A stretch of DNA of 63,973 nucleotides, filler included, from Rhizaria sp. SCN 62-66 (lineage: Eukaryota), in NCBI GenBank assembly GCA_001724265.1. It is 3 parts of 3 records of this genome, joined end to end, with 100 filler letters (N's around TTAATTAATTAA, not from the genome) between each part and the next. Parts side by side here need not be neighbours in the genome. Positions count along the whole stretch, not along the records: positions 27,702 to 55,307 come from MEDY01000401.1; 2 more parts are not named here. One strand, given 5' to 3'. Under the pieces are notes generated by a model that saw only the letters and a list, made by a program, of their open reading frames with translations, had not been told where the DNA came from and did not search any database. Made by a program: the position numbers and the translations under genes. Of the stretch, positions 12,322 to 63,865 are shown in pieces. Each line of letters starts with the position of its first letter. Position 1 is the first letter of the stretch.

Positions 12322-12390
12322 TCATGCGCCCTTGTTGTGATCATCATCGTCACTATCGTCCCCGACCTCCGCGTCGCCCATCATCATCTG

Positions 12391-12439
<49 letters not shown>

Positions 12440-27601: not shown

Positions 27602-27701
27602 NNNNNNNNNNNNNNNNNNNNNNNNNNNNNNNNNNNNNNNNNNNNTTAATTAATTAANNNNNNNNNNNNNNNNNNNNNNNNNNNNNNNNNNNNNNNNNNN
27701 N
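27602..27701. other. Artificial contig spacer (Ns with TTAATTAATTAA)
   Basis: 100-nt N block with a central all-frame stop linker at 27646-27657. Confidence 0.97.
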
Positions 27702-27798
27702 TTGACGATTATTTCACAGAGATTTCTATTGTGGAAGTTACCTGCCGAAAACTGCGTTTTTGGCGTTTTTTAGTTGACGCTACATAGGGGTTACATAC

Positions 27799-32817: not shown

Positions 32818-35800
32818 TCACTGCCAGTGCGCGTTGCGCTCGGCGGCGTAGCGTGAAGCGAAGCGGTAGGGATCATGGGCCGACTCTTCGCTGGTGCGGA
32901 AGCGCGTCGGCCAGCGCGTGTGGCGGATGTGCGAAGTGAAGATAATCGTACCAACCGCAAGCATTAGCACGCGCGGAGGCAGCAAGAGCGCAACGACCAG
33001 CCAGAAGACGCCGATGCGCAGGCCACGCTGCACAGGTTCACGAGCAACAAAGTTACAAAAGGAGTCAAGAGTGAGAAAAATGAGCAAATTATGTTCGACA
33101 AATGATGTTAAAAACAAAGAATATGAAGTCCATAAAAATAAAACGGGAATTGATGCTATTTAACTGAGATATTAGACTCATGTCGCAGGTTGTTTGTAGA
33201 CATCGAACAATCGTTGATAGCCGTCGACTTACCGCTTGCTTGGCCATATCGTGCCTGTTGCCGGGCGCGCGGAAAAGCACCTGCGCAAAGTTCTCCAGCA
33301 GTCCCACGAGCGTGAACAGATCCCGCGCGGCGTCCCTCTGCGGCTTGTATCGGTAGCGCGTGATCTTGAGCGCGTCGACCGCGGTGCCTGGCGCGCGCTC
33401 CTGCAGCACGGCCGACACGGCGGCGTCCAGGTCGAACCGCACCGCCGTGGCCGCTGCCGCCGCCGCCGGATCCGCGCGCACGCCCTCGCCGTAGACCGGG
33501 CCGACGGGGCCCTCAGAGCCCGCGGTGGCGGCTAGCACCTGCACTGCGTCGGCGCCGGCCAGTCCGCCGCCGCCGCTTCCGCCACCCATCACGCGGCGCA
33601 CCGACGAGGCCGCGTCCGCGGCGGCGTCGGCGGCTGCGGCTGCGGCTGCGGCCGTGTTGGCGTCGTTGGTGACCGAAGCGCGGCGCAGCGAGCGCGTCTT
33701 GGCGCCAACGCTGCCGCCAGGGCTGCCTAGAGCGCCCGCGGCGCTCGCGACCGCCGCCGCGGTGGCGCTGCCGATGCCCGAGTCAGGGTCGGCGCTGAGG
33801 TCCGCGTCGGAGTCGCCGGCGTAAGCGACCCACGGAGACCGCTGCTGAGCCCGTTGCTGCCGCTGCTGCTGCTCTTGCTGTTGCTGCTGCTGCTCCAGCT
33901 GTTGTAATTGTTGTACGCGCCGCTGATCTTGAGCCTGAGCCTGAGCCTGGGACTGCGCTGCGTTGTCGACAGGCGCAGGGGAGCGCGCGCGCGGCGGCGG
34001 CAGCGGCAGTGACCGGTGCGCGACCGGGACCGCCGACACGCTGCCGCGGTTGGGCGCATTGTAAGTACCGTCGATGTTGTCGTTGTCGATGTCGGCTTCG
34101 CGGCTGGGCTCCCCCGACTGGCCGCCGTTGAACGACAGACGCCGCGGCACCGCCCCGGCCGCCGCAGCGGCCACAGAGACAGACTGCGAGTAAGGAGACA
34201 CGGGAACCGTGAGCGTTTCGGAGCGCGAGCCGCGGCGCGAAGGCCGCAGGCGCGCGGCCGAGAGCAGCTCCGCGTCCTCGTCGTCATCCATGTACCCGAG
34301 GTCGACGGCGTCGGCGGCCGCGAGCGACATGGAGCGGCTCACAGAGGCGGAGCCGCGGCGGTGGCGCCAGCGCGGCCGCAGCGCGTCCGCGGCGGCGTCG
34401 TTGTTGTTGTCGACGTCGTTGCCGTGCTCGTTGCTGCCGTCGATGTAGTGGCAGTGCTCGTCGCCGTAGTCGTCATCGTCGTCGTTGCCGAAATGCAGGC
34501 CGCCAAACGCATGACCGTCAAAGGCTCCTTCAGTGGCCCCGTTCGCACTGCTGCTGCTGCTGCGGACGTTTTCGGGCTCCGGCGGCGGCGGCAAAGACAA
34601 TTGATCGTGCACCCACGCAGCAGCGCTCCAAAGCGCGCGCTGCGCCCGCTGCAGCAGCGGCTCGGCCGCCATCGCACCGTCCCCAGGAGTATAGTCTGCG
34701 TCTGCGTCTGCGGCCGCGGCCAGCAGCGCGGCTTCCGCGCGCGCGGTGCCGGGGGCCGGCGGCGTGTGGCTGGCGTGGAACTCCTCTTCGGCGGTCGGCT
34801 GATAGGTGCCGATGCCGACGCCGACGGCGCTCATCGCAGTTCTCGAGGGCGCACGCGAGCCCACACTCGCGCTCGCGCCCGGCGGTTTCTAGTCGTCAGA
34901 GTCGGGCGGCACTGTCAGGCTGAGCGACGGCAGCGCAGGGCCGGCGCTGACGCCCGTGCCCGCGCGGGTGCGCAGACCGGAGCCGGGACCCGCGTCGACC
35001 GCGAGGATCGGCAGCTGCTGGAAGCTGTTGGCGCCGCCGTCGCCGGCCGGGGAGGCCCAGTGAGTCGGCGTTTGCAGCTGTAGCTGCCGCGAGTCCTGAT
35101 CCCGCGCGCTGACGACCCTGCTACCGGCGTAGCTGCTCGGCGTGGGGATAACCAGAGAGGATGCGAACTCGCGGCGGTGCGGCGCAAGCAGCGGTGCTTG
35201 CTGTTGCCGCTGAGAGTTGTCGTTGTTGCTGTCACCGCGACCACCGCGGTCGCGGCCGCCAGCAATGGTGAGGACAGCGCCTCTCGTGGACTGTTTCGCG
35301 GCGACTCTGCCATTGACCGCCGCCGCCGCCGAGGCCGCCGCCGCGGCAGCCGCGCGGTCGGCCCGGTGCGCGCGCGCCTTGTGCGTCTCCATGGCGACCC
35401 GCGCCCAGCGCCCGCGCGCGCGACCCAGCGCCGCCGCGTCGGCCGCGAGCGTGGCCACCTTGCGGCGCGCAAGCTTGTGCACAACGCCCTCGAGCAGCCG
35501 CGCGAGCGCGAGCATGCAGTAGAGCAGCGGCGGGATGGCGAGCAGCGCCTCGGCGGGCGTGTAGACGACCGCGAGCACGAAGGCGATGTACAACCACAGA
35601 GAGGCAGTGGGGGACGTGAAGCGGATGACGGAGAGCACCCAGGACCAAGCGTGCGCAAGCTCGATCGCGGCTAGCACGTCCTTGAGGCGCGTGGTGGCCA
35701 CTGCGACGGCGTCGGTGGGCGTGGTGGTGCTGCGGAAGATGAGCAGGTGCAGCTTGCCTGTGGGACGCCGCATCGCGCCCCCGCGCGGCGGACGCAGCAC

Positions 35801-37432
35801 AAACCACTCGTCGTAGAGACGCGACGAGTCGAGGTGCGCTACGGGAATGCGCACGTAGCCAATGCACGCGTGCGCGCCGAAGAGGTCGTAGTCGAACACC
35901 CAGAGCTCCAGCACGTGCGCGCCGACGTTGACGGGGAACTCGAAGTCTTGCCGCCACACGGGCCGTGTCGTGCGGTTCTCCACGCTCGTGGACCGCTGGT
36001 GGCCGTCGAAGCGCACCACGACGTAGGGGTCGCACTGCGCGCGGCCGCGGCCCGAGGCGGAGGCGGGGACCAGCGAGTCAGCCTCGACCACGCGCACGTA
36101 CACGTGGTCGCGCGCCGTCGCCGCGGCCGCGAAGATGCCGGTCGCGGCGCTGCTGCTATTCGTCCCCCCGGCGCCGGGCGCGGGGCCGTTGCCCACAGTC
36201 ACTTTAATCGTGCTCCCAGCGCCAGCGCCAGTCGCTGTCGAGTCACCTGAGAGACTGGCCTGAGCAGCATGCGCCGCCGCTGCCGCGGAGGCCGCGGCTG
36301 CCTCCTCGTCGGCGATGCACCGCGCGCAGCTGACGCCAACCGCGCCCGTGCCCGCGCCGCCGTCGCCGAACTCGTCCAGGAACGAGTCATCGTTGCCGTC
36401 GAGCGAGCCGGAGCCGACGCGGGTGCCGGCGCGGCCGCGCGACTTGGACACGCCGCCGCCGCTTCCGCCGCTGCTGCTGATGCGGGCGTTATAGGGCCGC
36501 GAGCGGTCGCGCAGACAGCGCGCGGAGCCGCAGCAGACGGCGCCGCAGGTCTCGCACACGTAGCGGTTCTCAAACAGCGCGAAGGCGCGCGCGCAGACGG
36601 AGCACTCGCGCTCGCTCCCGCCCACGCCGCCCGCGCCGGCGCCGGTGAGCCCGAGGCCGCCGCTGAGGCCGAGCTGGCCCGCGGCCGCGGCGCCGTCCGC
36701 GCCAGGCAGCGCGGTCGACTGCGAGGGCGCGGAGGCCGAGGCGGCCGCGGCCGAGAGCGGGATGCCCACGGCGCGCTGCTCGGACTTGAGCAGCGCGAGC
36801 TGGCCCAGCCAGCGAGCGCGCTCGCGCGGGGTCGCGGCGCGCAGCACGATGACGCGGCCGGCGGCCTCGATCAGGAACGCGGTGCGCGCGGTGTCGTCCT
36901 CGGCCATGGCGTCGAAGTCGGTCAGCAGCAGCTCGCCCTTGGGCACGGGGTCCGAGGGCGCGCGCTTGTAGCAGAGCTTGAAGGTGCCGTCGGCGATTGA
37001 GACGTAGTAGAAGCGGCGCACCCAGTTGCCCAGCACGACGCCGCGCTTGAGCAGCCAGCCGCAGATAACGGTACCCGGGGCCATGGGCACGAGGTCGTCG
37101 TCCTCGTTGTCGTGCTCGGCAGCTGCGGCGGGCAGGCCGCCGCTGACATGATTGGTGCCATTGTGTCGACTGCTGCAGTTGCCGCTGCCATTGCTGCCGT
37201 CGCCTGGACGGAAAGAGGACGAAGACGGCGCAGCGTAGAGTGTTGACTCGTCATATGACGCGACGCTTTGGATGCCCCGCTGTCCGTTTGTTGCGTGATT
37301 CGACGAGTTTGCTGAGGATGCCGCAGCCGTGTCGTCGCGACTGCCAGTCGAGGAGGGGTGGGGCGAGTGGAGAGCGCTAGACGGAGGGGGAATCGGGCCG
37401 AACGGGGGACCGCCGCGCGCCGAAGAAGACAT
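32818..37432 (-). CDS. PH + FYVE-like zinc finger + C2 + C-terminal transmembrane (MCTP/PRT_C-like) protein, ~1469 aa; in-frame TAG at 34889-34891
   Basis: Exons 37432-33233 and 33027-32818; intron GTAAGT..CAG. PH: GWLLKRG..WVRRFY..ERARWL. FYVE-like: CSVC..RYVCETCGAVCCGSARC..SCARC. C2: VRVVEA..DPYVVV..PVWRQDFEF..LELWVFDYD. Hydrophobic hairpins on both sides of the TAG. Ends TGA. Confidence 0.8.
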
Positions 37433-45200: not shown

Positions 45201-48200
45201 ATTGACAGGAATTCGTTCAATTGTATTTTTGTTATTTGTATATTTGTACTACTCAAATTTTGTCAAATTTTGCTCATCTTGATTTTGTCTTTTTTTTTTT
45301 TTTCCAATTTGCTTCTTTATTCGCCCGTTCAGCCTCAGCCCGGCCAGGCCTCTGCCGGCACGCCGATGCAGACGCCCGTGTTCGCGGCGACGGCCTACGC
45401 GCAGTGGGCGGCGGTGCAGCCCTGGGAGGTGGACGGCGCGTCGTGCTTCCAGTCGATCGCCAACGACGGTGTCCTCGTTGACTTCGTCGGCAAGTGCCCT
45501 GACAACCTGCGCAAGTACGTCGCCATCGGTGTCCACGGGTCGAGTATCACGACCAACGTGACGGCCACCACGGCGGGCGTTTCCGTCGCGGCGGGCGCGG
45601 GCGGCGCCGTGACAGAGCCCTTCGACGTGTCGTTCCCCTACTACGTGCCGCACAATATCGAGTCGGACGGCGTGTACACACTGCACATCAACGGTGACCC
45701 CGTCAACAACAACGGCGTGCTGTCCCCGCCGCAGAACCTGGGCCGCGCCAAGTCGGCCGAGTACTCTGTCGCCGAGACCAAGGCCATCGTGTACAAGGGC
45801 CGCGTCGTGCAGGGCTTCACGCAGTTCGCGGACTCGTCCTCTGCCTTCCCCTTCATCCACTCGTTCCGCGCGCTCCGCGGCGGCGCCGGGCTCGATGGCG
45901 GGCTCCAGGTCATGCCGCTCACGCGCGCGCAGAACCAGATGCTGCGCTTCCACACCTCGATCGACAACACTGTGGTGCTGGATGGCACCTCGAAGCTGCA
46001 CGGACTGCCCGCCGACGGCAACGCGACCTCGACGCGCCGCGCTATGTACAACGACGACCTCGGTCTGCAGATGCAGCGCCACTTCTCCGACCCCACGACT
46101 AACGACGCCGGCAGCTTTTACCCGTTCATCTCGCGCGTGGCCTTCCGCGACGAGTTCCCGCAGACGCTGCAGGCGCACCCGAAGCCGCTTCGTGGGCACC
46201 GCCAGCTGGTGATCGTGGCGCAGCAGGGCGCAGGCACATCGACGCCCGACAAGGGCCAGCTCGAGGTCATGGTGAACCGCTTCTCCGACCGCGACGACGA
46301 GCTGGGCATGGGCGAGCCTCTGCGCGATTCGTCCACCTTCACTTTCACGTACCGTGTCTACTTCAACGCCTTCGTCGAGGCCACCATGGCCTCTCCCGAG
46401 GATGCGTACGTGGCGGCCACCTCGGCCATCCTCTTCGGCGCCAAGGCCGGCTCCGACGGCGCGTGCGGCAACGACAACTTCCACGCCGAGTCCATCCTGG
46501 TCAACAACCCGCCGTTCGTGGCCCCCGCGCCCGGCGTGCCCGCGGCCTACGCGCTGGCTGCCGCCGACGCCGTCGCCGGCCGCCCCACGCCCGCGCCCGG
46601 CGCGCTCGCCGCGCTGCCCCCGCTGACCGCGGCGGACCCGCTCGTGTCGCGCCTCGCGCTCACGCTCGCCTCGGTCGCCGCCGTGTCGGCTGCGCGCCAG
46701 GCCGCGTCGGGCGCCGCGCCCGCGGTGACGCCCGCCAACGACGCCGTGGCGCCGCTGCTGCGTTTCTCTCCGCTGGCACAGCCGCTGCCGCGCTGTGTGC
46801 ACGCGCTGACCGTGGCGCCCATGTGCGACGTCTTCACCAACGCCATCCGCGACTCGACGGACCCGGTGCTGCCGCGCTGGCCCGCACCGCTGGGCTTCAA
46901 CGACTACTCGGATGCCGTCGCCGCCGTGGTGCCCGCCGAGTTCGCGGCGCGCGGCGTCGTGGTCCGCGCCGAGCGCCCCGTCGCGGGTTTCCCGCTACCC
47001 GCCTCGCTCGCGCCGCCCGCGTCGGGACCCGTGCCGACCGCGCCGCCGCCGCTGCCAGTTGCGCTGCGCTTCATCAACCTCGACTCGCGCGCCATCTTCC
47101 GCTCCTCGATCAACTCCAAGGCGCTCGACGAGCGCTTCGCGCAACTGCGCCCCGCCGGCGCCGCCAACGGCGTCCTCACCTCTGGCACGGCTATCGCCAA
47201 TCTCCCGCTCTCGGCGCCCGCGTCCGTGCCCTTGCAGGCTGCCTTCGCCTTCGACCTGGCCGCGCCCGTCGCGGCCGGCACCGCCGCGGGCGCGACCGGC
47301 GGCGCGGGGCTCATCCTCCGCGGTGCCCCGCAGCGCGTGGGGCTCAACCACGTGGCGTACGCGCTCTCGCCTTCGGCCAAGCCCGCGACGGCGACCGTGG
47401 TGCCACTCGACGCGTCCGCGCTCACGGGCGCTTCCCCGGCCGCGGCCGACGCCTCCGACGCGCTCTTCACGCTCACTGACTCGGTCGCGCTTGCCGCGCA
47501 CACCGTGGCGCCCTTCTGCCCGCTCTACCCGGCGCGCACCGACATCGAGATCGGCCGCCTGGGTTTCGCCATCCCGGCGCGCCGCCAGCCCGTGCTGCAG
47601 CCCTACGCGCGCGAGACGCCTACGCGCGCCGGCGCCGCTGTCTCGGCGTCCGGCAAGGGGCTCATCACGCTGCCCGGCTCCGGCTCGGGCCCGCGCGTGC
47701 CCGCGGGTGTGACTGCCGCGCTAGCGGGCTTCTCGGCCAACCCGCGCCGCGCGATGTTCTACTCGGGCGCGTCCGTCTTCGAGGCCTTCTCGCGCCACCT
47801 GGACAGCAAGCTGGGCTGGGACGCCGGCTCCGCCAACACCGGCGGCGACGCACTGGGCCAGTGCACGGCGCACCTCTACACGGGCTCCGGCGTGCCCGGG
47901 CTGCCGCTCACGCTCGCGGCCAACAACCCGACGCTGTCGCGCGCGGCCTCGGCCGGCTTCTCCACGGTCCAGCGCCTGCGCGCCTTCTCGCCACGTGCCC
48001 TGGGCCTGCCGCTCTACCACCCGGTCAAGTCCGTCGACGACGGCGCGTCGTGGCCCAACGCAGCCAACGAGTCCGCGCCCGTGACGCAGTACATGCTGCC
48101 CTCCACCACCGCGCTCTATGACGCCTCCGCCTCGTCCTACTTTGCGCCGCTGCCCTGGTGCCACTGCGGCTACCAGCACCTGGTGGAGCCCGCCTCGGCG

Positions 48201-49379
48201 CTGGTGCTGCGGCCCGGCGCGCTGGCCGTGCACACGGCCGCCGCCTCCGCCGCGCTCGCCTCGGTCGAGTTCGCCTGGTACGCGGGCCCCACGCGCAGCG
48301 CCATCGTGGCCTCCACGGCCTCCGCGGCGGCGGGCCACGGCGCGCAGATGAGCCGCTACGTTGCCGCGCCCGGGTCCACGGCGCCGACGTTCAACGCGGC
48401 CGAGACGGAGGCTGTGCGTGCGCTGTACCTCTCTGCCGAGGCCGACGCCGTGCTCACAGTTGCGGACCGCGGCGAGTCGGCGCTGCTGCCGCCCGCCGCG
48501 GGCTCGCGTGCGCTGCCCGTGGTGTCCTCGGCCACCAGCTCCTGGGTCCAGACGCTCGCGCCACTCCATTTTTCCGCCCACACCATCAACGTCGACAAGA
48601 CGGCCGCCGCCGGTGGCCGCGGCGCCACCGCCGCCGCCGCCACGCTGGGCCAGATTGCGCGCCCCGCCGTGGCCGTCGCCACCCCCGTGGCCACCCCCGC
48701 GCCCGTGCCCGCCAAGTCCACGCCCGCGGCGCCCGCGACCCCGGCCACGCCCGCCGCGCCCGCCGCCCCTGTGCCCGCCACGCCGGCCGTGCCCGCGACC
48801 GTGGCCACCCCCGCCACGCCCGCGACGGTCGTGCCCGCGACCCCGGCGACGGTGGCCGCGCCCGCGCCCGCGACCTCTGCGGTGCCGCAGGTCCCCGCGG
48901 CCACCGTGATCGACCCCAACGCCGCGGCCGCCGCGGGGCTCTCCACGGACGGCTCCTCGTACGTGTCGGTGACGACGGTCACGGACCAACGGTCGCCCGA
49001 CGGCGCCGTGGTGATCCGTGTCGACAAGCTCTTCGTGCAGATGCTCGTCGTCGGTGGGTTGCTCTCACTCGTCGGCGTGCTTGTGTGCGTGCTCTGCCTG
49101 CTCGTGCGCGCCATCCCGCGCCGCCCCGGCCAGGCGCTCTCGCTCGGGCTCGTGCTCGCCTACCTGCGCGGCGACCCCTCGGTGGGCTACTCGCGTGTCG
49201 ACCTCAGCGCCGCCGCGGGCGGCGACATCGCCATGCGCGGGCTCAAGAGCGTGCCGCGCGCGCGCGGCGCTGTGGGCGGCGACACCGACTACGACGACGC
49301 CACCGACTTCGGCGACGAGACCAACCTGCCCTCCGCGCAGGCCGGGCCCGGCATCTCGCGCCGCGCCATGCGCATCTAA
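42220..49379 (+). CDS. GH38 alpha-mannosidase with signal peptide, Pro/Ala/Thr stalk and C-terminal TM, ~2331 aa
   Basis: Exons 42220-45168 and 45333-49379; intron GTACGT..CAG. Motifs HVVPHSHTDAGW (Zn ligands), GQMEFVNGGFVMNDEA, GWCIDPFG (nucleophile Asp), WWTGYFASRP, QHHDAITGT, GQLEVMVNR. TM LFVQMLVVGGLLSLVGVLVCVLCLLV. Ends TAA. Confidence 0.9.
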
Positions 49380-50604: not shown

Positions 50605-51957
50605 TCAGATCGCCGAGGGCAGGCTGTGGCTCTGCTCCAGCGCCCGGATCGCCTCCCGCTCGGCCGCCTCGGCGCTCAGCACACCGCTGCTGTTTGCGCC
50701 GCCGCTGCTAGCGCTGCCGCTGCTAGCGTGAGCGTGTGCGCCGTGGGCGTGGGTGCCCTGCAGCAGCGCGCGGCGCTGGCCGAGGATCGAGGTGAGGTAC
50801 TGCGCCGAGAGGCTGTGCAGCGCCATCACCTCAGCGCTGTCGAGCCCGCCGCCCGCGCCCGCGCCACCGCCCGCGCCGGCAGCGAAACTGGCACCGCTGT
50901 CGTTTGGCACACTGCTGTTCGACTCGGGCCCCCCAGAGCCGGGACCGGGCCCAGCGCCGCTCTGACCGTGACCGTGTCCGTGTCCGTGTCCGTGGGCGGG
51001 CGAGACCGGCAGGAGCGAGTGGCGGCCGCCGAGGAGCGCGAGCGTGGTCCGCGCGAGGTCTTCCTGGCACCGCGCCAGCGCCGCAGCCACCGCGGGCGGC
51101 CGGGCCACCGTCGGCAGCGGCGCCGCGGCGTACTGCTGCGGCGCCTGCGGCTGCGTCTGCGTCAGCGGCTGTGGCCGTGGCCGAGAAGGTTGGGACTGCG
51201 CGGCCGATTGAGGGGTGGCGAGGGGGGCGGCCGGGGGCAGCGCGGGGCCGGCGAAGACAGCGGGCGACTGCGGCGAGCGCAACAGAGAGGACGTCGTAGG
51301 CACAAACGGCGCAGTTGGCTGAGCAGTCGCAGCTGCATCAGTCATGAGGTTGGATACCGATACTGACGCAGCGTCTGAGCTGGACTCGGGCGATGCAGCT
51401 GTCTGCTGCTGCTGCCGCTGCTGCTGCTGTTGAACCATGACAGAGTCCTCAGTATCGCACACGCTAGTAGCTCTAGCTCCTAACGCGCTCTCAGTTTCTG
51501 TCGCTGTCGCAACGGCGCCGGCTGCCGCGGCGGCCGTCTGCGCCGCGGCGGTTTGCGCGGCCTCGTACTCGGGGTCGGGCCCGTAGAGGTCGACGTCGCT
51601 GTCCTGGCCGTTGCCGTCGCTGTCGCTGTCGCGGTACAACGCTGCGCTAAGAGACTGCGCACCCGGAGACGCTTCGTCCGAGACAGCAGAGGCAGAGGCC
51701 ATGGCTCTGGCCAAGCCGGCGGTGGCGGTCCTCGCAGCCGGTCGGGAGGGGGAGGCGTCGGCCGACGGGACGGACTCTGAGTCCTTGCCGAGGTGCATAG
51801 CAGGAGCGCGCGCGCTCAGGGACAGATAGGAGCAGGGTAAGCCACGGGAACGCGCTGATGCGTTGAGGGAGGCCTCGGTGACACGCGGTGCGAGTGCCTG
51901 GGAGGCGTCAGAGAGGGCTGACTCAGTCTTGAGACCCGGGGTGTGGGAGGAGCGCAT
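50605..51957 (-). CDS. Hypothetical low-complexity protein, ~450 aa
   Basis: GC-rich ORF with coding-like codon use between AT-rich flanks; first ATG at 51957; no family recognised. Ends TGA, with a possible 22-codon extension. Confidence 0.65.
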   Translation of the reverse strand: MRSSHTPGLKTESALSDASQALAPRVTEASLNASARSRGLPCSYLSLSARAPAMHLGKDSESVPSADASPSRPAARTATAGLARAMASASAVSDEASPGAQSLSAALYRDSDSDGNGQDSDVDLYGPDPEYEAAQTAAAQTAAAAAGAVATATETESALGARATSVCDTEDSVMVQQQQQRQQQQTAASPESSSDAASVSVSNLMTDAAATAQPTAPFVPTTSSLLRSPQSPAVFAGPALPPAAPLATPQSAAQSQPSRPRPQPLTQTQPQAPQQYAAAPLPTVARPPAVAAALARCQEDLARTTLALLGGRHSLLPVSPAHGHGHGHGHGQSGAGPGPGSGGPESNSSVPNDSGASFAAGAGGGAGAGGGLDSAEVMALHSLSAQYLTSILGQRRALLQGTHAHGAHAHASSGSASSGGANSSGVLSAEAAEREAIRALEQSHSLPSAI

Positions 51958-52573: not shown

Positions 52574-54310
52574 ATGCTTCCGGTCCCTACCTCGTCTTCC
52601 CAGTCGAGCGGTGGTGACTCCTCTCCCTCCGCGGGCGGCCCCGTGCGCCGCCGCGCTCGCTCGACGTCGCGCACGCCGCGTCAGTCGATCGGCGGCGGCC
52701 CGGCCCCCATCCTCACTGACGGTGAGGAGCTCGACCACATGTTCAAAATCGTCGTTTACGGTGATGCTGACACGGGCAAGACGAGCATCCTGCGCCGCTT
52801 CCTCTCAAACGAGTTTTTTGACACGTACGAGCCTTCGAAGGCCTCCGAGGTGCTGACCAAAGTTGTTTCGGTGCAGGACAAAATCAGTACCAAGAATGAC
52901 GCCTTCCGCATTAAGTGCGACTTCTGGGACCTCGCCGGCGCGAGCAAGTTCCGCCCCATCTCTCTGCCTTTTGCCAAGGGCGCCAACGGCTGTGTACTCG
53001 TCTACTCGGTGACCAACCGCGCGTCGTTCGAGAACATCGAGCGCTGGCTCAAGGACGTCTCCGGCGTCGTCGGCAAGGCGGCCTCGCCCGTGGACGAGGT
53101 CGTGTACGTGCTCGTCGCGCATAAAACGGACCTCGCCGTTGCTACACCCGACGCGCGCATGGTGTCGACGGCCGAGGGCGAGGAGCTGGCCGCCAAGTCG
53201 GGCCTCAAGTACGCCGAGGCATCCGCCAAGACAGGCGAGGGCGTCGACGAGGCCGTGCGCCTGGCCGTCGAGAGCGTCTTCGAGCAGCGCTACGAGGTCA
53301 TCCTGCAGGAGCGCGCGCGCGCCCGCGAGGCGCGGCTGAAGCGGCAGCTGCAGGCGCGGCTGGACTCGAAGGACCTGCGCCAGATGTATGCAGCGATGGA
53401 GGACGAGGAGGCCGCCAAGCAGGGCCGCGCGCTCACCGACGAGGAGCGCCTCGCGCTCGCCGATGAGGCGCGCCGCCGTAAGGAGCGCGAGGAGGAGCTG
53501 CGCGCGGCCCAGGCGCGTCGCAAGGCCGAGGAAGAGGCTGCCGAGGCGGCCCGCAAGAAGGCCGAGGAGGAGGCCGCCGCTGCCGCCGCCAAGAAGAAGG
53601 CGGAGGACGATGCCGCCGCCGCTGCCGCCGCCGCTGCCGCCGCCGCCGAGGCCGCGCGTCAGGCTGTGCTGGACGCCTAGCGCGCTGCCGCTGCCAAGGC
53701 TGCCGCCGAGGCCGCCGCGGCTGAGGCCGCCGCCGCCAAGGCCGCCGCAGACGCCGAGGAAGAGGCGCGCCGCCGTGATGAGCTGCTAGCTGCCGCGGCC
53801 GCCGACGCTGCGGCCGCCGAGTACGAGCGCTCGCTGGCACTGCTGGACGCCACTGCGGCCTCGGACGCGGGCGTGCTGGCGATGAGAGTCGACGACGAGG
53901 ACGACGAGGCGCCCGTGACGTGCCTCGAGACGATCTTCTGCCCGCTGCTGTCCTTCGGCGTCGTCGTGTTCATCATCGCGCTGCCGCTCATCGTGGCCAC
54001 TTTCCCGCTGTACCTCATCGCGCTGGGCATCTACCTGGCGCTGGGCCACCAGGTTGTGCCGCCGCGCATTGCTGCCCAGCGCCGTCGCCGCCGCGCCGCT
54101 GCCGCCGAGCGCGCGCGCTACGCGAAGAGCAAGCACGTCGCTGCGGGGGGCCTCAACGGCGACGTTGAGGCCGGCCACGGCCATGGCGCGACCGCCACCG
54201 GCGGGGTCCAGTTCATCCCCCCGAACAGCAGCAGCATCAGCGGCAACAAGGTTGTCGGCGCCACCGCCAACTCCAAGGCCTCCAGCAAGGGCTACGGCGC
54301 GCTGCTCTAA
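52574..54310 (+). CDS. Divergent Rab-like small GTPase with Ala/Glu/Arg helical stalk and C-terminal TM anchor, 578 aa; in-frame TAG at 53678-53680
   Basis: FKIVVYGDADTGKTS (G1), WDLAG (G3), HKTD (G4), EASAK (G5). The helix continues across the TAG into the in-frame ORF 53873-54310, which has a long hydrophobic segment. Ends TAA. Confidence 0.82.
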
Positions 54311-55208: not shown

Positions 55209-55307
55209 TTACTCGTCGGCCTTCTTGGCAGCCTTCTTGTCGGCGAGGGCCTTGTCGGCGGCCTTCTTGGCGATGATCTTCTCCATGCGGGACCAGTGCT
55301 TGGCGAG
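55209..55307 (-). CDS. 3' fragment of a Lys/Ala-rich, probably highly expressed protein (possibly the ribosomal protein eL13 C-terminus)
   Basis: Reads LAKHWSRMEKIIAKKAADKALADKKAAKKADE-TAA with strong GCC/AAG codon bias; truncated by the gap. The eL13 identity is only a resemblance. Confidence 0.55.
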   Translation of the reverse strand, partial: LAKHWSRMEKIIAKKAADKALADKKAAKKADE

Positions 55308-56056: not shown

Positions 56057-59000
56057 ATGACTTCACTACAAAGTCTTCGGCGGGTTTGCTCGTTCGTGGG
56101 TCTCGTGGTGTTGGTTCTTATCTCGCTCGCTGCTCAAGTCACCGCTGACTTGTCGTTCACCGGCGTCACGCTCGTTGACGACTCAACGAACAACTTAGGG
56201 TCTGGCAAGTTTATCCTTGCGTGGGACTCGGCCGCCAACACGACGAGCACCACCATGTTTACGAACGTCCTCACCTTCAAGTTTGAGGGCGCTTCGACCG
56301 ACCCTGTTTTGTTTACCGCCGCCAGCGCCGATTTCTCATCCTCGGACTGTACCGCCACTGTCAACATCGACGGCACTAGCCGTGACATGTCGCTCTCTTT
56401 TGTCTGCTCACTGGGCATTTTTCCCCAAACAGCCAATAACGTGACCCTCACGATGACACGGAGTACAGCTACGATTGCATGTGACTCATATGCGCCCTAC
56501 AAGCTCTCCTCCGTCGGTTCCGGCGCTATCACTCCCAGTGATGTATCCGCAGCGTACTTCTGGAACCTGTGCCCTGTCTCGTTCACCGACGTGAAGCTCA
56601 CTTCCGGGCTCACCAACGGCCTCCTGGTCGTGACGCTCTCGTGGGCCGGCGCGACGGAGTCCGCGCACCAGACCTTCAACCCTAAACTCATCATCAAGAA
56701 CATCGCCGGCGTCGAGGTCTTTACCTCAGCTAGCGCCACGCCCGTTGCCATCGCCGGCTCTACCGTGACCGTCTCGACGGATCGCATCGGCGGCGTCAGC
56801 GGCGACACCCTGGTTCTGACCTTCGCGATCCCGGCCGGCGCGTCGCTCCCCCCCGCGGGCTCCGTCGTGCTCCCCGTAACCACCATCGGCATGTGTCCGA
56901 CCGCCTACAGCGGCACCTATCAGGTGTCCGCTTACCCGGCGGACCGCGTTACGGTGGCGGGCGCGCTCACGGGGATTGTGCAGCTCCCCGCGTGCCCGCG
57001 GCTTGACGGCGTCGTACTGGCCTCCACCACTACGGCCACGGGCGTCAACGTCACCGTGTCGTGGACCAACTTCACCAACTCGGACAACGTGGCCGTGGCG
57101 TCGCTGTCGCCGCTTCAGCTCGCGCCGTGGTCGTGGTCCAATGCAGAGGTGCTCGACGGCATCGGCGCGGGCTACGCCGAAGTCTCCGTTGCCACCGACA
57201 TCAAGATCGCCGTCAACTACACGCTTAACGCGTATACGCTCAAGTTCGTCGCGGAGAACGGCGCCACAATTCCCAGCAGCGGGACGTTTATGTTTGTGGC
57301 CAATCTCAACACTGAAATCGCCTGCGACAGCACCTCTACGTATTCCATTTCCCCTTTCAACGGCTCATTCCTCACTATGACCGGCACCTTCGGTGTCGTC
57401 GTCGTCAGCGCTGTCACTGCGACCGCGTGTCCCATCAACCGCTTCTCGCTGGCCACGCTCACTGCGAACGCCGACGACAGCAACGCCGGCGCCGGCTCGG
57501 CGACGCTGCGCGTGACGTGGTACAGGTTCGCGGAGAACTTCGGGCTCACCGCTGCAGGCGCTGACGTGCTCGCGATCAAGCCCATCCTTAACAAGGGCTT
57601 TTTCTCTGACGTTGACGGCGTTGTGACTGTGTTTAACGGCTCAGGTGCCGTCGCCACCGGCGTTACCGCGACCGCGAAGTTCGACGCTGCCAGCGGTGTC
57701 ATCACCGTCGCGATCGCCAAGGCCCCCAGCGCCACGTTCCCGTCTTCGGGCTACCTGGTCGTCAAGCCCACGCGCGCCACGGGCCAGGTTGCCATGGACA
57801 TCGGCTGCGAGGCCACGGCGATCTACACCGTCGCCGGCGCCAACGCGGATAACACTGTGGCCGCCTCCTACACCGACTCCCTTCTCGCCGACTACAAGTG
57901 GACCTGGTGCTCTGTGGCCGTGGGCGGCGCTGCGATCGCATTCTCGATTGAGGATGGCACGCCGCGCGTGTCGCTGGCCTGGGATGCGCTGGCCGCTTCG
58001 AGCGGAAACCCGCGATTACCGAAGCTGCGCGTTGTCATGACAAATGGCCTGTTTAGGGCCACCGAGCAAGTTATTTTCATCAATGACGTGTATACTCTTC
58101 CTGCTCTTTTCAAGGTTGAGACCGACGGCGGACCGATCATCGTGACTTTCAACCAGACCGCTGGCAGTGTGCTCCCCGTCTCAGGCTCTCTAGTCATGAC
58201 CCTCGACTATTTGGAGAACATCGTGTGCGACATTGATGCGAACAGGACCAGCATTACCCTCGAGTCCGCCGACAGCGCGGCTTCCGTCATTACCAACACC
58301 GCGGACCCCTCGAAGCTGACCGGTACTGCGCGCACGCCCGCGTGCCCGACGCTGAACGGCTTTTCCGTGACTCAGACCAACAACGGTGTCACCATGTCTT
58401 GGACTGGCTTTGATAACCCTGACTCGCTGACGCTCAAAACCTCAATGGTGAGCCTCGAGATGGTGCCCGTCAGCGCCGGCGTCACTGTCTTCAAGTCTGT
58501 TGTCAGCGACGTTATCCCGATTGAGAAGAGCACACACTACGCTTTTTTGTCTGTCAACAATGGCAACTTCTCGATCAGCTTCTTTCAGGCTGGCAATGAC
58601 GCGTTCCCTCAGATCGGCTTCGTCGAGTTAAAGCTCGAGCTTGTTGACCAGTGCGGCATCGAGAACATTGCATACCAGGTGCGTCCTGCCGCAGCCAAGG
58701 GCATCGGCATGAGCGCTGTTGGGAACTTTGTTGCCCGCACACTCCCCTGCATCCACGCCTTCTCCGGCGTGCGCCTCACCGCGCCCTTTGCCGATGACTC
58801 TGTCAACAAGACGGCGATCCTGACCGGCTCCACGGGCTTCCGCTTTGCGTGGAGCGATTACAAGTCGGACGCCACAAGTTTCAGCGAGGTCGTAAAGATT
58901 AGCATCGTGGATGACACATTCTCCGGGCCCTCGCTGCTGATCGACGCGACCAGCGCGCCCGCCGCGCTGCGCGACGCCGCCACAGGCGAGCCCGTCGTCG

Positions 59001-62000
59001 GCTGGACTGTCCAAGCCTCCGTCGCCAGCTCCGTCGTTGCGCTGTCTTTTGTCCAGACGGGCACCGCGGCGTTTCCGACCGCGGCGTACGTGGACGTGCA
59101 GCCCCCGCGCGCCCAGGATGCGCACACCTGCCAGGACGTTGAGCTCTACTCGGTCGCTAATCTGGACGGCGTCTCGACCTTTGCCGCCGCCGATGGCAAC
59201 TCTGAGTTGCTCTCGACGTTGTACGTGTGGGCGGTGTGCCCCGTTAAGTTCGACACCATGCGGCTGACCCCGATGGTCGACAACGGCGTGGTCAAGCTCG
59301 CCGTGGACTGGAACGATGTCGCCGTGGACAGCTACAACACGATTGCCCCGGCGCTCAAGATAAGCCGCGAGAACGGCACCGCGGTCTACGCGGAGGCCTG
59401 GGGCCCCGAGACTGTGGCCGTCAACGCAAACGTCAGCGTCACCGTCCAGAGCGTCGGCGGCGAGATTGCGCTCGAGTTCACTCTCTACAACGGCGCTACT
59501 GTGCCTAAGACCGGCTCGTTCCGATTCCCGCCAGCGGTCAGCGCATCTGCGCACTCGTGCGTCGAGAGCCTCACGGGCGTTTACAAGATCTCTTCGGGCA
59601 ACGAGGCTCTAGCAACGGTCAACAACAAGAACGACGCCGACCTCGTGTTTGCCGAGGCGCGCGCCCTTAGCTGCCCGAGCTTCACCGGTATGTCGCTCAC
59701 GCTTCTCGGCAACACGATGACGGTTGCTTGGACGGGTTACATCAATTATGACGATGTCCCGACTGGCAACTTCTCCACGTACTCGATTTCGCTTGACGCG
59801 GAGTCGGTGCCCGTTCTCACGAATGTCACTGACGCGACGAGCACGATCGACCTGGGCGACGGTGTCACCGTTAATGTGTGGTTCGTTGACAACGACTTCC
59901 ACTTTAGCTTTTCCGCCGTTGATCTTGAGACCATCGCCAACGCGGGCTCCTTCTCCTTCGACGTTGACAAGATTGCCGAGTGCGGCCTCACAAGTCAGTA
60001 CACTCTCGGCGTGGACGACGCCACCGCCTCGGGCTTCTCCGGCACCGCCCTCACCGTCACCGCCGTCTCCGCAACCTGCCCCGACCCTGCCGTGTTCTCC
60101 GGAGTCTCGCTCGCCTCAGAGACCCTCGCCAGCACCTTCAAATTCGTCGCCACGTGGACCGGATTCACTAACGCCCAGGGCGCGTCCCTTGCGCTGACCT
60201 TCCGTATTGCGCTCACCACAGGCGCCAGCGACATTTTCAACACCGCGTCCACCAACTCTGTTGTGCTCATTGACGTTGACTCGAACATCGGCGACCTCGG
60301 CATCGCCACAGTCACCTTGGCCAACGACGCTTACATCGTCGCCCTCGCCCCAACTGCGGGGACCCCCGTGCCCGCCAACGGCCGCCTCACTGTGTCGCTC
60401 ACGCTCAGATCCGCTGCGGCCTGCGGCACCACGTCCACGTTCGCCCTCGAATCGGCGTCCGCGAAGGCGGTGACGCTGGTGTCCGAGGGCGCGACCTCTG
60501 TGTCCTACTCCACGCCGTCCTGCATGCCAACCTTCACTGGGCTAAGCCTCGCTGGCGACACAGCGACTCTCAGCGGCAACAAGGGACTCGTTATTGCCTG
60601 GACTGACTTCTCCAACAAGGATGCCAAATCCCTCGCGAACGCGTTTGTCATCACTCGCATTAACGCCTTCTATGCCAATCCTTTCACTGGCGTCCCCACC
60701 ACCGCGCAGCCTGTCAAGGACGCCGCCGGCGCTGATGTGACTGGCGTCACCGCGAGCCTCAGCTACAGCAGCGTCTCCGGCGACATTACTGTGTCGTTTG
60801 CTCTTGCGGCTGGCGTCGTGTTCCCCACACAGGGCTCTCTCGCCGTGACGCCCACGGTCGACGCGACTCTGGCTTGCGATCAGACTACTTACCTCCGGCT
60901 CGACATCAACTCAACTGTGGTCAGGTCCTCCGCTCCCAAGGTGATCACTTTCGGCTTCAAGTCGTCCGTGTGCACGTATATGCAAGACTTTAACGTGACT
61001 CAGGTCTCGCAGAGCGGGGCGCAGCTCACTCTTGCGGTTACCTACGAATACTTCCAGCAGGGCCTCAAGGAGGGAGTGATCACGCTTGAGAGCTTCGATC
61101 ACACTGATCTCTACACCGACCTCCCCGCCATGGACATTATTGTCACCGCCGACGACTTTGCCCAGATCACGGTCACTGGCAGCGTTGCAAACGGCGTCAT
61201 CACGCTCCCGCTGACCGACAAGCTGCCCCGTGCCGGCGGCAGGCTGCAGTTTACGCTGCAGCTCGCCGTCACCGCGGACTGCGACCTTACCACCACGCTG
61301 ATGCCATCCTTACAGGGCGAGGTCTTTGCTTCGCTTGTCACACCCGGCCTTGCCTGCACCTACGACTGGCGCTGCACCGGCGCGTCCGCAGGCGCTGCCT
61401 CCGACGGCCTTGTGTGCTCGACCACGGACGCCTCCCAGTTCAGCACTGTTTGCAGCAACAACTGCGGCAATGGCACGCTTTCCCTCGTTGAGTCCTACTG
61501 CTCGCGTCTCAATAACGGCACGTACATGGACAAGGCGACCGGCGCGTCCAAGTGCGTCGGCGCTAAGCCTGCGCTCACGCTGTCCTGCACTGACTACACC
61601 TGCCCCAGCGCCCTGTGGAGGTGCAGCGCCATCGGAGGCAATGTCTGGGTCGACTGCGCCAACGACGGCGCGTTCGGCACTTGCGAGAACTACTCTGGCT
61701 GCCACTTTAACGCTGCACTGAAGCGCACAGCTATGTGCGTCGCCACCTCGACCAGCACCACCGACCTTGGGAGCAACTGCCCCACTGCTGTTGTCGCAAA
61801 GAAGCCCGCGCTGATCAAGGACTGTGTGTCGAACCTCGACACGTGCTCCATGCGGTTCGACTCCGAGGACGAGTGCTACGACGCCGACAAGAAGCTCGCC
61901 ATCTGCGGTGCCGCAACGCGCAACGGAACATGCATCAACAACGCGACCAACAGCGACGTCGCGCTCGACCTGTGCGTGGAGGCCCAGGTGCCGCTCACGC

Positions 62001-63865
62001 AGGCCTGCGCCAACATCCCCGCCGACTGCAGTAAGCCTGCGGGCTGGGTGGGCCACCCGGCCTCGAACTGCGAAACCGCGAGCGCGCCACTGTGCAAGTC
62101 GGTCCGCAAGCAGACCGTTGAGTGCGCCTTCGTCAGCGCCAAGAATGTGACTGTCACTGCCGCCGAGTACGTGTGCGACAATGTGCCCAAGGTGCTGCCC
62201 TTGTTCGTCAACTGCGACACACCGGCCGTGACCTGCGCTGCAAATCACGGCTCGTGCTCGGGATTCCTGCCCTACGAGAATGATAAACAGGCGCTTGCCA
62301 CGTGCGTCTGCCATCCCGGCTTTTTCGACTCGGCGTGCAACACTGCTGTCACGATCACGAACGTCGTTGCTACGTGGAACAAGACTTCGCGCGCGATCAA
62401 CGTTGACTGGGCCTCCAACGCCGCTGACGTTGCTGGCCTCAAGGTGACCGTGATCGTCACGCCGTCCGGCTACACCACCGGCATCAACGTCGGCCAGGTG
62501 ACGCTCGGCGCGCTCTCCGCCGAGGTCAGCGCCGCCACGTACAAGCTTGCCCCCGGCGCGTACAACGTGACCGTGTTCCTCACATCGCTGTCGACGGCGA
62601 CCGCGACTGTCACCGTGGGCTCGCTGTGCGACAATGGGGCCGGCCAGACGCACTCGTGCGACAACGACGGCACGTGCGACGAGGCCACCGGCGTGTGCAC
62701 GTGCAAGGGCGCGTGGTCCGGCGCGTACTGCACCGTGTCGCCGTGCCAGTCCGCGGTGTGCAACACGGCCAACACGCAGGAAACCAGCTGCTCTGTTGTG
62801 GACCACCAGGCCCACTGCAACTGCCTCACCGCCGAGGACGGCAAGACCTCGCTCTTCAAGGACGCATTGTGCAACGAGGCCGTCGACTCGACGTGCCCCG
62901 CCGACCTCAAGTGCTCCAACAGCGGCGTCCCTCTCTCGGTCTACAACAAGGAGACCCACGCGCTCGAGTGCGCCAACACGTGCTCCTGCCCCCAGGGCTC
63001 GCCCTTCGGCGGCGCACTCTGCGACACGTGCAACAACGTGTGCTCCACCGAGGGCACTGTGGGCGCCATCTCGGCGCAGTGCATGTGCAAGTGCAAGCCG
63101 GGCTACACGGACGAGAGCTGCGGCTGCCGCTACGCCAACTTGCGCCTCGTGTTCCCGCTCTCGGCGCTGTCTTTCCTGGGCACTGCGACCGAGTTCGCGC
63201 AGCTATTGCTGTGGATCTCGGCGCTTAAGTCGGACCTCAAGGCCGTGGGCGGCAAGACCTCCCTTGTCTACAGCGTCTCTGACTTGACCCGCATTACCGT
63301 TAAGCGCGGCAGTTTCGTCAACGTGCTCGTCAGCGCGGGCCCCGACTGCAGTCCAGAGACGCAGAAGGCCGCAGCGCTGCCCGTCGCGTTCGCCAAGCAC
63401 AGCGCCCGCATGCGCCCTATGTCGGCCGCGCGTTTTACCGCGCAAGGGTCCTCAGTCGATATGACCGAGACATACGCCGCGCTCAAGACCATCACGACGG
63501 CCCTCTCCGCGGGCCAGAGTAGCGGCAGTACGAGCACCACGCTCGGCGCCGCCCTGCCCGACAACGTCGGCATCAGCGATGACGCGTGCGGGTTGTCCTG
63601 CGTCGGCCTGCCCGCGAGCACCGGCCCCGGCAAGGTCGAAACCGACACTGACGACGGCGGCAGCGCTGGCGGCAGCGGCAGCAACGACGATGACATCATC
63701 ATCGGTGTGGTTGTCGGCGTCGGCGGTTTCCTCATCATCGCCGCCATCGTGTTCTTTGCGTTCTACAAGAAGCTTTTCTGCTTCGCGGGCTCCTCTGCGG
63801 TGACCGATGCTGAGAAGAACACTGGCATCGAGATGACTGCCGCTGGTGCTGGTTATGATGTTTAA
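56057..63865 (+). CDS. Type I membrane surface protein: 12 beta-rich repeats, Cys-rich TSP/EGF-like region, TM and short tail, 2602 aa, intronless CDS
   Basis: Signal peptide FVGLVVLVLISLAAQVTA. Repeats start C-P-x-F-x-G-x-x-L and carry a conserved W. EGF-like CDNDGTCDEATGVCTCKGAWSGAYC. TM IIIGVVVGVGGFLIIAAIVFFAFY. Ends ..GYDV-TAA. Confidence 0.85.
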   Translation: MTSLQSLRRVCSFVGLVVLVLISLAAQVTADLSFTGVTLVDDSTNNLGSGKFILAWDSAANTTSTTMFTNVLTFKFEGASTDPVLFTAASADFSSSDCTATVNIDGTSRDMSLSFVCSLGIFPQTANNVTLTMTRSTATIACDSYAPYKLSSVGSGAITPSDVSAAYFWNLCPVSFTDVKLTSGLTNGLLVVTLSWAGATESAHQTFNPKLIIKNIAGVEVFTSASATPVAIAGSTVTVSTDRIGGVSGDTLVLTFAIPAGASLPPAGSVVLPVTTIGMCPTAYSGTYQVSAYPADRVTVAGALTGIVQLPACPRLDGVVLASTTTATGVNVTVSWTNFTNSDNVAVASLSPLQLAPWSWSNAEVLDGIGAGYAEVSVATDIKIAVNYTLNAYTLKFVAENGATIPSSGTFMFVANLNTEIACDSTSTYSISPFNGSFLTMTGTFGVVVVSAVTATACPINRFSLATLTANADDSNAGAGSATLRVTWYRFAENFGLTAAGADVLAIKPILNKGFFSDVDGVVTVFNGSGAVATGVTATAKFDAASGVITVAIAKAPSATFPSSGYLVVKPTRATGQVAMDIGCEATAIYTVAGANADNTVAASYTDSLLADYKWTWCSVAVGGAAIAFSIEDGTPRVSLAWDALAASSGNPRLPKLRVVMTNGLFRATEQVIFINDVYTLPALFKVETDGGPIIVTFNQTAGSVLPVSGSLVMTLDYLENIVCDIDANRTSITLESADSAASVITNTADPSKLTGTARTPACPTLNGFSVTQTNNGVTMSWTGFDNPDSLTLKTSMVSLEMVPVSAGVTVFKSVVSDVIPIEKSTHYAFLSVNNGNFSISFFQAGNDAFPQIGFVELKLELVDQCGIENIAYQVRPAAAKGIGMSAVGNFVARTLPCIHAFSGVRLTAPFADDSVNKTAILTGSTGFRFAWSDYKSDATSFSEVVKISIVDDTFSGPSLLIDATSAPAALRDAATGEPVVGWTVQASVASSVVALSFVQTGTAAFPTAAYVDVQPPRAQDAHTCQDVELYSVANLDGVSTFAAADGNSELLSTLYVWAVCPVKFDTMRLTPMVDNGVVKLAVDWNDVAVDSYNTIAPALKISRENGTAVYAEAWGPETVAVNANVSVTVQSVGGEIALEFTLYNGATVPKTGSFRFPPAVSASAHSCVESLTGVYKISSGNEALATVNNKNDADLVFAEARALSCPSFTGMSLTLLGNTMTVAWTGYINYDDVPTGNFSTYSISLDAESVPVLTNVTDATSTIDLGDGVTVNVWFVDNDFHFSFSAVDLETIANAGSFSFDVDKIAECGLTSQYTLGVDDATASGFSGTALTVTAVSATCPDPAVFSGVSLASETLASTFKFVATWTGFTNAQGASLALTFRIALTTGASDIFNTASTNSVVLIDVDSNIGDLGIATVTLANDAYIVALAPTAGTPVPANGRLTVSLTLRSAAACGTTSTFALESASAKAVTLVSEGATSVSYSTPSCMPTFTGLSLAGDTATLSGNKGLVIAWTDFSNKDAKSLANAFVITRINAFYANPFTGVPTTAQPVKDAAGADVTGVTASLSYSSVSGDITVSFALAAGVVFPTQGSLAVTPTVDATLACDQTTYLRLDINSTVVRSSAPKVITFGFKSSVCTYMQDFNVTQVSQSGAQLTLAVTYEYFQQGLKEGVITLESFDHTDLYTDLPAMDIIVTADDFAQITVTGSVANGVITLPLTDKLPRAGGRLQFTLQLAVTADCDLTTTLMPSLQGEVFASLVTPGLACTYDWRCTGASAGAASDGLVCSTTDASQFSTVCSNNCGNGTLSLVESYCSRLNNGTYMDKATGASKCVGAKPALTLSCTDYTCPSALWRCSAIGGNVWVDCANDGAFGTCENYSGCHFNAALKRTAMCVATSTSTTDLGSNCPTAVVAKKPALIKDCVSNLDTCSMRFDSEDECYDADKKLAICGAATRNGTCINNATNSDVALDLCVEAQVPLTQACANIPADCSKPAGWVGHPASNCETASAPLCKSVRKQTVECAFVSAKNVTVTAAEYVCDNVPKVLPLFVNCDTPAVTCAANHGSCSGFLPYENDKQALATCVCHPGFFDSACNTAVTITNVVATWNKTSRAINVDWASNAADVAGLKVTVIVTPSGYTTGINVGQVTLGALSAEVSAATYKLAPGAYNVTVFLTSLSTATATVTVGSLCDNGAGQTHSCDNDGTCDEATGVCTCKGAWSGAYCTVSPCQSAVCNTANTQETSCSVVDHQAHCNCLTAEDGKTSLFKDALCNEAVDSTCPADLKCSNSGVPLSVYNKETHALECANTCSCPQGSPFGGALCDTCNNVCSTEGTVGAISAQCMCKCKPGYTDESCGCRYANLRLVFPLSALSFLGTATEFAQLLLWISALKSDLKAVGGKTSLVYSVSDLTRITVKRGSFVNVLVSAGPDCSPETQKAAALPVAFAKHSARMRPMSAARFTAQGSSVDMTETYAALKTITTALSAGQSSGSTSTTLGAALPDNVGISDDACGLSCVGLPASTGPGKVETDTDDGGSAGGSGSNDDDIIIGVVVGVGGFLIIAAIVFFAFYKKLFCFAGSSAVTDAEKNTGIEMTAAGAGYDV

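Follow-up and report, generated by a model that had tools for sequence, protein, structure and literature searches.

In the usual view of Rab GTPases, a lipid anchor lets them shuttle between the cytosol and membranes, and the large coiled-coil Rabs CRACR2a, Rab44 and Rab45 are still prenylated. Tail-anchored golgins consist of a rod followed by a C-terminal membrane anchor. In atlastins, the GTPase is followed by a helical middle part and a hydrophobic hairpin, and an amphipathic helix forms the C-terminus. As for the genetic code, reassignment of UAG alone in nuclear genes reportedly occurs in phyllopharyngean ciliates (PMC11687900). Here we analyze a gene of Rhizaria sp. SCN 62-66 (assembly GCA_001724265.1) that lies in a stretch of 63,973 nucleotides (the window) and has a single TAG in its reading frame. 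We consider it probable that the gene is read through this TAG into one protein of 578 residues, which would be a permanently membrane-inserted, probably slowly hydrolyzing Rab-like switch on a long stalk.

Miro (C-terminal), SRbeta and Arl10 (both N-terminal) have a permanent transmembrane anchor of their own (PMC13393502, PMC8358228). In the SAR clade, integral membrane segments at the C-terminus have replaced prenylation in Rheb-TM. This protein has four predicted transmembrane segments, lacks a long stalk, frequently keeps a vestigial CaaX Cys and is conserved in stramenopiles, alveolates and rhizarians (Zahonova et al. 2018, PMC5869587). CRACR2a, Rab44 and Rab45 join a Rab domain and a long coiled coil in one chain (PMC6504896). 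Nuclear codes with UAG alone reassigned are described in very few lineages, including the rhizarian exLh, where UAG encodes Leu (384 in-frame UAG in 71 genes), and Iotanema spirale, where it encodes Gln (PMC5304391).

G domain, stalk and membrane segment

The frame comprises 578 codons followed by a TAA at 54308-54310, and its codon-usage likelihood was the highest for all four segments tested. Residues 58-235 of the product matched the Pfam family Ras (PF00071; E = 3.5e-34, score 118.2 against a cut-off of 21.6 bits), and the profile TIGR00231 (small_GTP) matched at 7.5e-15. The motifs GxxxxGK[ST], DxxG, xKxD and SAK of Ras-superfamily small GTPases are all there. The best 60 of 555 solved sequences (E<=1e-10) were all Rab, Ypt or Sec4 proteins, with Rab1a, Rab39B, a Thorarchaeota Rab, Rab8A and Rab11A at the top. 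All matches listed by Foldseek for the AlphaFold2 model were likewise Rab entries, with template-modeling (TM) scores of 0.80-0.94 by target. Thus, among the matches listed, sequence and fold place the domain nearest to Rab rather than to Ras, Rho, Ran or Arf, in agreement with the Rab-like identity that an earlier, sequence-only reading had proposed.

We compared its motifs with those of 63 single-G-domain homologues chosen from 150 listed. The P-loop, DxxG, the Lys and Asp of G4 and the SAK of G5 are retained. The catalytic Gln of G3 is replaced by Ala123 (Gln in 57 of the 63 homologues), as had already been noticed in the motif DLAGAS, and the switch-I Thr is replaced by Ser88 (Thr in 61 of 63). 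The sequence-only reading had also taken the G4 motif HKTD as a sign of altered activity. The motif is present, but it is weak evidence for such a change: His also occurs in three of the 63 homologues, and the aligned motif of human Rab39B is HKCD, so HKTD is no sign of a broken site. The real departures are the loss of Gln to Ala in G3 and of Thr to Ser in switch I.

The Rab family motifs (RabF1 to RabF5) are IGVDF, KLQIWDTAGQE, RFRSIT, YYRGA and LVYDIT, and the consensus of our homologue alignment agrees with this list. RabF1 is lost (KASEV) and RabF2 is altered (IKCDFWDLAGAS); RabF3-5 are recognizable as KFRPIS, FAKGA and LVYSVT. The 578-residue product has Cys at positions 115, 140, 450 and 456 only, while 46 of the 63 homologues have a Cys in their final five residues. 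As first read, the protein ends KGYGALL, and neither the full product nor the 368-residue form truncated at the TAG has a C-terminal Cys. Three Rab features are thus missing: the C-terminal geranylgeranylation Cys, the catalytic Gln and the switch-I Thr. Because the first two are absent, we file the protein as Rab-like and not as a Rab. Identity to its relatives is only about 30-40%, and no subfamily could be assigned. Judged by its residues, the protein is a divergent Rab-like GTPase without lipid-anchor cysteines.

The AlphaFold2 model of the full protein has a mean confidence score (pLDDT) of 76.9. The G domain is confident, mostly above 90, and the linker and tail are disordered. A predicted helix of 136 residues (289-424) passes straight through codon 369, the position of the TAG, and helix composition is alike before (Ala 34%, Glu 16%) and after it (Ala 46%, Glu 13%), so the helical repeat that had been seen to run through the TAG is borne out. 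The high pLDDT of the stalk has to be discounted, since low-complexity sequence rich in Ala always comes out as helix in such models; the stalk's slight similarity to TolA, which stays below the cut-off, reflects the same composition. With that discount, the model shows about 200 residues of predicted helix, rich in Ala, Glu and Arg, leading from the G domain to the hydrophobic segment.

Residues 452-494 form a hydrophobic stretch of 43 residues that contains Cys456, Pro457, Pro471 and Pro478. Kyte-Doolittle means over 19 residues exceed 1.6 at window centers 455-486 and peak at 2.7, and the same scan found no second segment of such hydrophobicity in the protein. By hydropathy and predicted helix, the stretch is long enough to span or enter a bilayer. 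It is acidic on its N-side and followed by six consecutive Arg on its C-side, and no signal peptide precedes the 450-residue N-terminal part. The stretch may be a hairpin or one long span. We favor a hairpin because the stretch is twice the usual span length and has central prolines, because of the charge distribution and because there is no signal peptide. A hairpin would leave both ends in the cytosol and would satisfy the positive-inside rule. Of the architecture first proposed, the G domain, the long helix and a hydrophobic stretch of about 40 residues therefore hold, while the hairpin does not appear in the model.

Word searches with the whole protein gave no match among 8,000 candidates, probably swamped by Ala-rich words. 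With the G domain, they gave 32 matches (best identity 37%), mostly Asgard GTPases of 326-338 residues, with no orthologue among them. The exhaustive search of representative sequences gave 34,566 matches with E<=0.001. Locus scans found four metagenome loci at 32-39% identity, and scans of prokaryote genomes found no match for the G domain or for the kinesin encoded in the window. Tandem multi-Rab proteins outscored every single-domain Rab in the exhaustive search, by repetition; P0157-P0161, P0169 and P0182 carry two to four tandem Rab domains per chain in 441-747 residues. A strongly hydrophobic segment occurs in 10 of the best 150 matches, near the C-terminus in P0248, P0163 and P0204 and within a polytopic protein in P0219, so Rab-like domains with membrane segments of their own occur sporadically elsewhere. 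The ten include P0156, the only one of the best 150 matches to cover the C-terminal part of our protein (100% identity). P0156 is a 142-residue protein identical to the downstream open reading frame (ORF) at 53882..54310, recorded alone and on three contigs. Standard-code annotation thus splits the gene, as had been anticipated. We found no relatives of this 142-residue ORF in public protein collections, and an Atlas search with it gave no usable feature match, all structural rows lying below TM 0.4.

The in-frame TAG and its readings

The TAG stands in the context GCC TAG CGC, and the peptide around it is as first read: ARQAVLDA, the TAG, then RAAAAKAAAEAAAAEAAAAK. Under the standard code, four of the 19 main ORFs of the window end in TAG. 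After joining across TAG, none of the 14 complete genes does (seven TGA, seven TAA), and two less certain ends are also of other kinds (TGA for 598..1212, TAA for the fragment at 55209). Past the four TAGs (19305-19307, 28136-28138, 34889-34891 and 53678-53680), the same frame continues without a stop over a further 962, 114, 599 and 209 codons, at a GC content at third codon positions (GC3) of 0.66-0.89. Past 13 TAA or TGA stops, it stays open for 0-92 codons, with a median of 18. The ORF 22379..27649 was left out of this count: the contig ends within it, and the TAA that closes it is part of the spacer between contigs. Each of the four genes has a single TAG, with neither TAA nor TGA in frame and no frameshift, and the other three firm TAGs behave like the one studied here. 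The window, a small sample of three contigs, thus has in-frame TAGs and no TAG-ended gene. Because no gene in it truly ends in TAG, release at this codon does not appear to be efficient.

The 201 bases between our TAG and the next ATG (53681-53881) point the same way. Their GC content is 0.79; of 12 intergenic stretches, 11 lie at 0.42-0.51 and the remaining one at 0.60. Scored against the codon usage of the window's own genes, they have a log-likelihood per codon of -3.40 in the upstream frame, versus -4.34 and -4.38 in the others. In the Sushi-repeat gene 27791..32134, a Sushi match lies 3' of the TAG at E = 0.041, below the cut-off and a mere hint of continued translation. The paralogue alignment for 18756..22196 did not reach its TAG site. 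A possible fifth site, in 900..3374, was not counted because the first standard ATG (1239) comes only after its TAG. We also considered a micro-intron at 53666-53680 (an in-frame GT..AG of 15 bases ending in the TAG); the polyA RNA contig retains these bases, and it is probably not an intron.

Near-identical DNA is present in bioreactor, wastewater and activated-sludge runs: 14 of 15 rows from eight studies cover part of the stretch, and five cover half or more. The tables of runs X2 and X3 are identical, and we counted them as one data set, as they are probably the same. In the polyA metatranscriptome X4, two contigs, both of depth 4.9, span 52872-53560 and 53659-54211 with 0 differences. X4 record 24 has the same TAG, and none of the runs has a different letter at 53678-53680. 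Since the X4 contigs are identical to the gene, TAG included, the codon in that RNA is not CAG and the downstream part is present. A CAG in the reads is what the sequence-only reading had named as counting against it. The gap between the two contigs (53561-53658) coincides with a GCC repeat and does not count as evidence for two transcripts. The comparison also listed many 'joints' within GC-rich repeats, with only 20-22 letters on each side, and we rejected them as noise. Elsewhere in the window, an X4 contig has 24 differences in 796 bases at 35654-36449, with other parts identical; a second strain or allele, about 3% divergent, seems to be present in that sample.

Taken together, these results lead us to infer translation through the TAG: the organism would decode it as a rare sense codon, and one gene would make one 578-residue protein. 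Of the readings we weighed, the original one, a single read-through product with its own membrane anchor and no prenylation site, is the best supported.

Several points weigh against it. No orthologue with the same architecture turned up in the word, exhaustive, locus or prokaryote-genome searches, which leaves the join without comparative support. The TAG lies in low-complexity sequence with no orthologue column, so the earlier proposal to read its residue from homologues could not be carried through. None of the runs compared has a contig bridging the TAG; X4 record 24 reaches just 19 letters beyond it on the upstream side, where bridging takes 31, and contigs cannot prove a single transcript. 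We found no tRNA genes in the window. In the AlphaFold2 model the hydrophobic stretch forms a single helix of 34 residues (458-491) and no hairpin, and every functional statement made here is one that we infer. Finally, TAG is the rarest codon (4 in 16,556, or 0.24 per 1000), three times rarer than the rarest ordinary codon (ATA, 0.79 per 1000), and the base after it is C in three of the four sites and A in one. Both features would also fit leaky read-through.

Leaky read-through leads to the alternative that survives best, one that we nevertheless judge unlikely. Inefficient decoding of the TAG would yield a soluble 368-residue Rab-like form and less of the 578-residue anchored form, and the TAG would act as a dosage valve. 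The extreme rarity of TAG is in its favor, and a C right after a stop codon (position +4) weakens termination in eukaryotes. Moreover, the TAG lies inside a low-complexity helix, and in the model truncation would still leave a folded G domain. Yet no gene in the window has TAG as its real end, and two of the other TAGs (codon 184 of 1146 and codon 848 of 1447) would give truncated products that look useless.

We give somewhat less credence to a related view in which the TAG stands exactly between a soluble Rab-like switch and its anchor, decoding efficiency would set the ratio of free to membrane-fixed protein, and the fixed form would serve as a trans tether without a GDI cycle. The same view can be put in terms of lineage, and it is no less doubtful so put: a sludge protist lineage with TAG freed from termination and used very sparingly would make an anchored, Rab-tipped form in atlastin-like order.

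It is likewise improbable that the TAG is a true stop, so that a soluble, anchorless 368-residue Rab-like protein would be followed by a separate 142-residue membrane protein starting at the ATG at 53882. Standard-code calling does give that ORF, which is recorded by itself, and no contig meets the bridging rule across the TAG. However, the interval up to the ATG is richer in GC than the intergenic stretches and coding-like in the upstream frame, and the Ala/Glu-rich composition goes on unchanged past the TAG. A long, open, coding-like frame follows all four TAG 'ends' and none of the TAA or TGA ends, and searches with the 142-residue ORF by itself turned up no relatives. A broken gene or an artefact (a recent nonsense mutation making a pseudogene, a sequencing error or a bin mis-join) is very improbable: linkers do join the three contigs of the bin in this window, and the GCC-rich repeat around the TAG is where short-read assemblies break, but the gene lies well inside contig 2, the stretch recurs in runs of several studies and years, the TAG is the same in a polyA RNA contig of another study, and a pseudogene would need four of 15 genes to be broken, each by exactly one TAG.

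On the preferred reading, decoding of the TAG as a rare sense codon would place the G domain, the stalk, the hydrophobic segment and the poly-Arg helix in one chain. The hydrophobic segment may enter the membrane as a hairpin, with the G domain and the basic tail remaining cytosolic. Because this segment would itself be the anchor, the protein would be permanently membrane-bound, with no on-off cycling via GDI and REP as in prenylated Rabs. Because Ala replaces the catalytic Gln, GTP hydrolysis should be slow and the protein mostly in its GTP form. It would then act as a fixed flag, held on the stalk up to about 30 nm from the membrane and capturing effectors or other membranes, like a golgin-type tether with a Rab domain at its tip.

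Features of the window

The window consists of three contigs of a metagenome bin joined by spacers (44 N, TTAATTAATTAA, 44 N) at 27602-27701 and 55308-55407; our gene lies on the second contig (27702-55307). GC3 in coding sequence is around 0.8 and intergenic GC about 45%, and the ORFs are long and apparently uninterrupted. The Pfam families are eukaryotic: kinesin, GH38 mannosidase, Sushi, Kelch, PH/FYVE/C2 and HORMA. The kinesin has relatives at 89% and 86% identity; its named matches are scattered over oomycetes, Cercozoa, Amoebozoa and chytrids, and in the Atlas it falls into broad kinesin clusters only. For five long ORFs, which encode 450-2602 residues, Pfam gave no family at E<=0.001. 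The coordinates are collected in Table 1.

Table 1. Coordinates of the Rab-like gene, its parts and other features of the window
Feature	Position	Strand	Basis
Whole coding sequence, 578 codons and TAA, one in-frame TAG	52574..54310	+	frame reading, codon-usage likelihood
N-terminal Ser/Gly/Pro/Arg-rich region, residues 1-52, predicted disordered	52574..52729	+	composition; pLDDT <50 over residues 4-42
Rab-like G domain, residues 53-242	52730..53299	+	Pfam, TIGR00231, solved sequences, Foldseek, pLDDT mostly >90
G1 P-loop GDADTGKT, residues 63-70	52760..52783	+	G63, G68 and K69 same in 63/63 homologues
G3 DLAGAS, residues 119-124	52928..52945	+	Ala123 at catalytic Gln column; Gln in 57/63 homologues
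G4 HKTD, residues 183-186	53120..53131	+	His in place of Asn, like Rab39B (HKCD)
Predicted helical stalk, AlphaFold2 helices 224-264, 266-284, 289-424	53243..53845	+	Ala/Glu/Arg/Asp/Lys-rich; pLDDT mostly >90
In-frame TAG, codon 369 of 578	53678..53680	+	frame reading; same letters in polyA RNA contig
67 codons from TAG to next ATG, coding-like, same frame	53681..53881	+	GC 0.79; codon log-likelihood
Acidic linker, predicted disordered, residues 425-451; Cys450 adjoins membrane segment	53846..53926	+	composition, AlphaFold2
Putative hydrophobic membrane segment, residues 452-494	53927..54055	+	Kyte-Doolittle peak 2.7; helix 458-491
Predicted basic helix directly after membrane segment, residues 497-523 (RIAAQRRRRRAAAAERARYAKSKH..)	54062..54142	+	sequence, AlphaFold2
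Gly/Ser/Ala-rich tail without Cys, ends KGYGALL, then TAA	54143..54310	+	composition; predicted disordered
Signal-peptide Kelch protein, one in-frame TAG at codon 184 of 1146	18756..22196	+	frame reading
Sushi-repeat protein, 1447 residues, one in-frame TAG at codon 1333	27791..32134	-	frame reading
PH/FYVE/C2 protein, one in-frame TAG at codon 848 of 1447	33089..37432	-	frame reading
Long ORF without Pfam family	56057..63865	+	
Long ORF without Pfam family	45366..49379	+	
Long ORF without Pfam family	12322..15321	-	
Long ORF without Pfam family	4195..6579	+	
Long ORF without Pfam family	50605..51957	-	
C-terminal gene fragment cut by contig 2 end (..LAKHWSRMEKIIAKKAADKALADKKAAKKADE, stop TAA)	55209-55307	-	

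Comparison with known systems

If our reading is true, a membrane-built, probably slow-hydrolyzing, stalked Rab-like switch would be a natural experiment on what a Rab domain does without the cycle, and a Rab-side case beside the 'tinkering' with the mode of membrane attachment already known for Rheb and ARF proteins. Without read-through of its TAG the gene cannot be seen, and standard-code annotation of eukaryotic bins can halve such proteins. The window is also compact evidence, from a small sample, for a rare UAG-only code change in a GC-rich, intron-poor wastewater eukaryote. Like the described UAG-only codes, it has TAG alone in frame and genes that end in TAA and TGA. It differs from exLh in density, with four TAG in 15 genes (0.24 per 1000 codons).

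With canonical Rabs (Rab1, Rab8, Rab11, Rab39B; Ypt/Sec4), the protein shares G1, the Lys and Asp of G4, and G5. Their RFRxIT, YYRGA and LVYDxT correspond to its KFRPIS, FAKGA and LVYSVT, and with Rab39B it also shares the G4 motif HKxD. It departs from them in having no C-terminal Cys, KASEV for IGVDF, Ser for Thr and Ala for Gln, and it adds a C-terminal extension of 340 residues with the predicted stalk and membrane segment. CRACR2a, Rab44 and Rab45 likewise join a Rab domain to a long coiled-coil or helical region. Their coiled coil is N-terminal, whereas the helix of our protein is C-terminal and leads to the membrane segment. With golgins and atlastins it shares the order of parts only, with no sequence relation, and its G domain is Rab-like and not dynamin-like.

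Our literature search, whose coverage lacked most subscription journals, found no description of a Rab with a transmembrane anchor. Calling the protein an unusual membrane-integral small GTPase, as was done at the outset, is fair as to 'unusual', but there are precedents of the kind. Miro, SRbeta and Arl10 are Ras-superfamily GTPases with a transmembrane anchor of their own. Miro carries EF hands and a second G domain, whereas SRbeta and Arl10, with their anchors at the N-terminus, are ARF-like. None of the three is known to have a long helical stalk from G domain to membrane, unlike the protein described here. Rheb-TM comes closest in plan, as a Ras-superfamily GTPase with C-terminal membrane segments in place of prenylation; our protein differs in being Rab-like, in having a single 43-residue hydrophobic stretch after a stalk of about 200 residues and in having no detected orthologues. 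Membrane-spanning GTPases of the Ras superfamily are thus already known in Miro, SRbeta, Arl10 and Rheb-TM, and the Rab-like case adds a variant to them.

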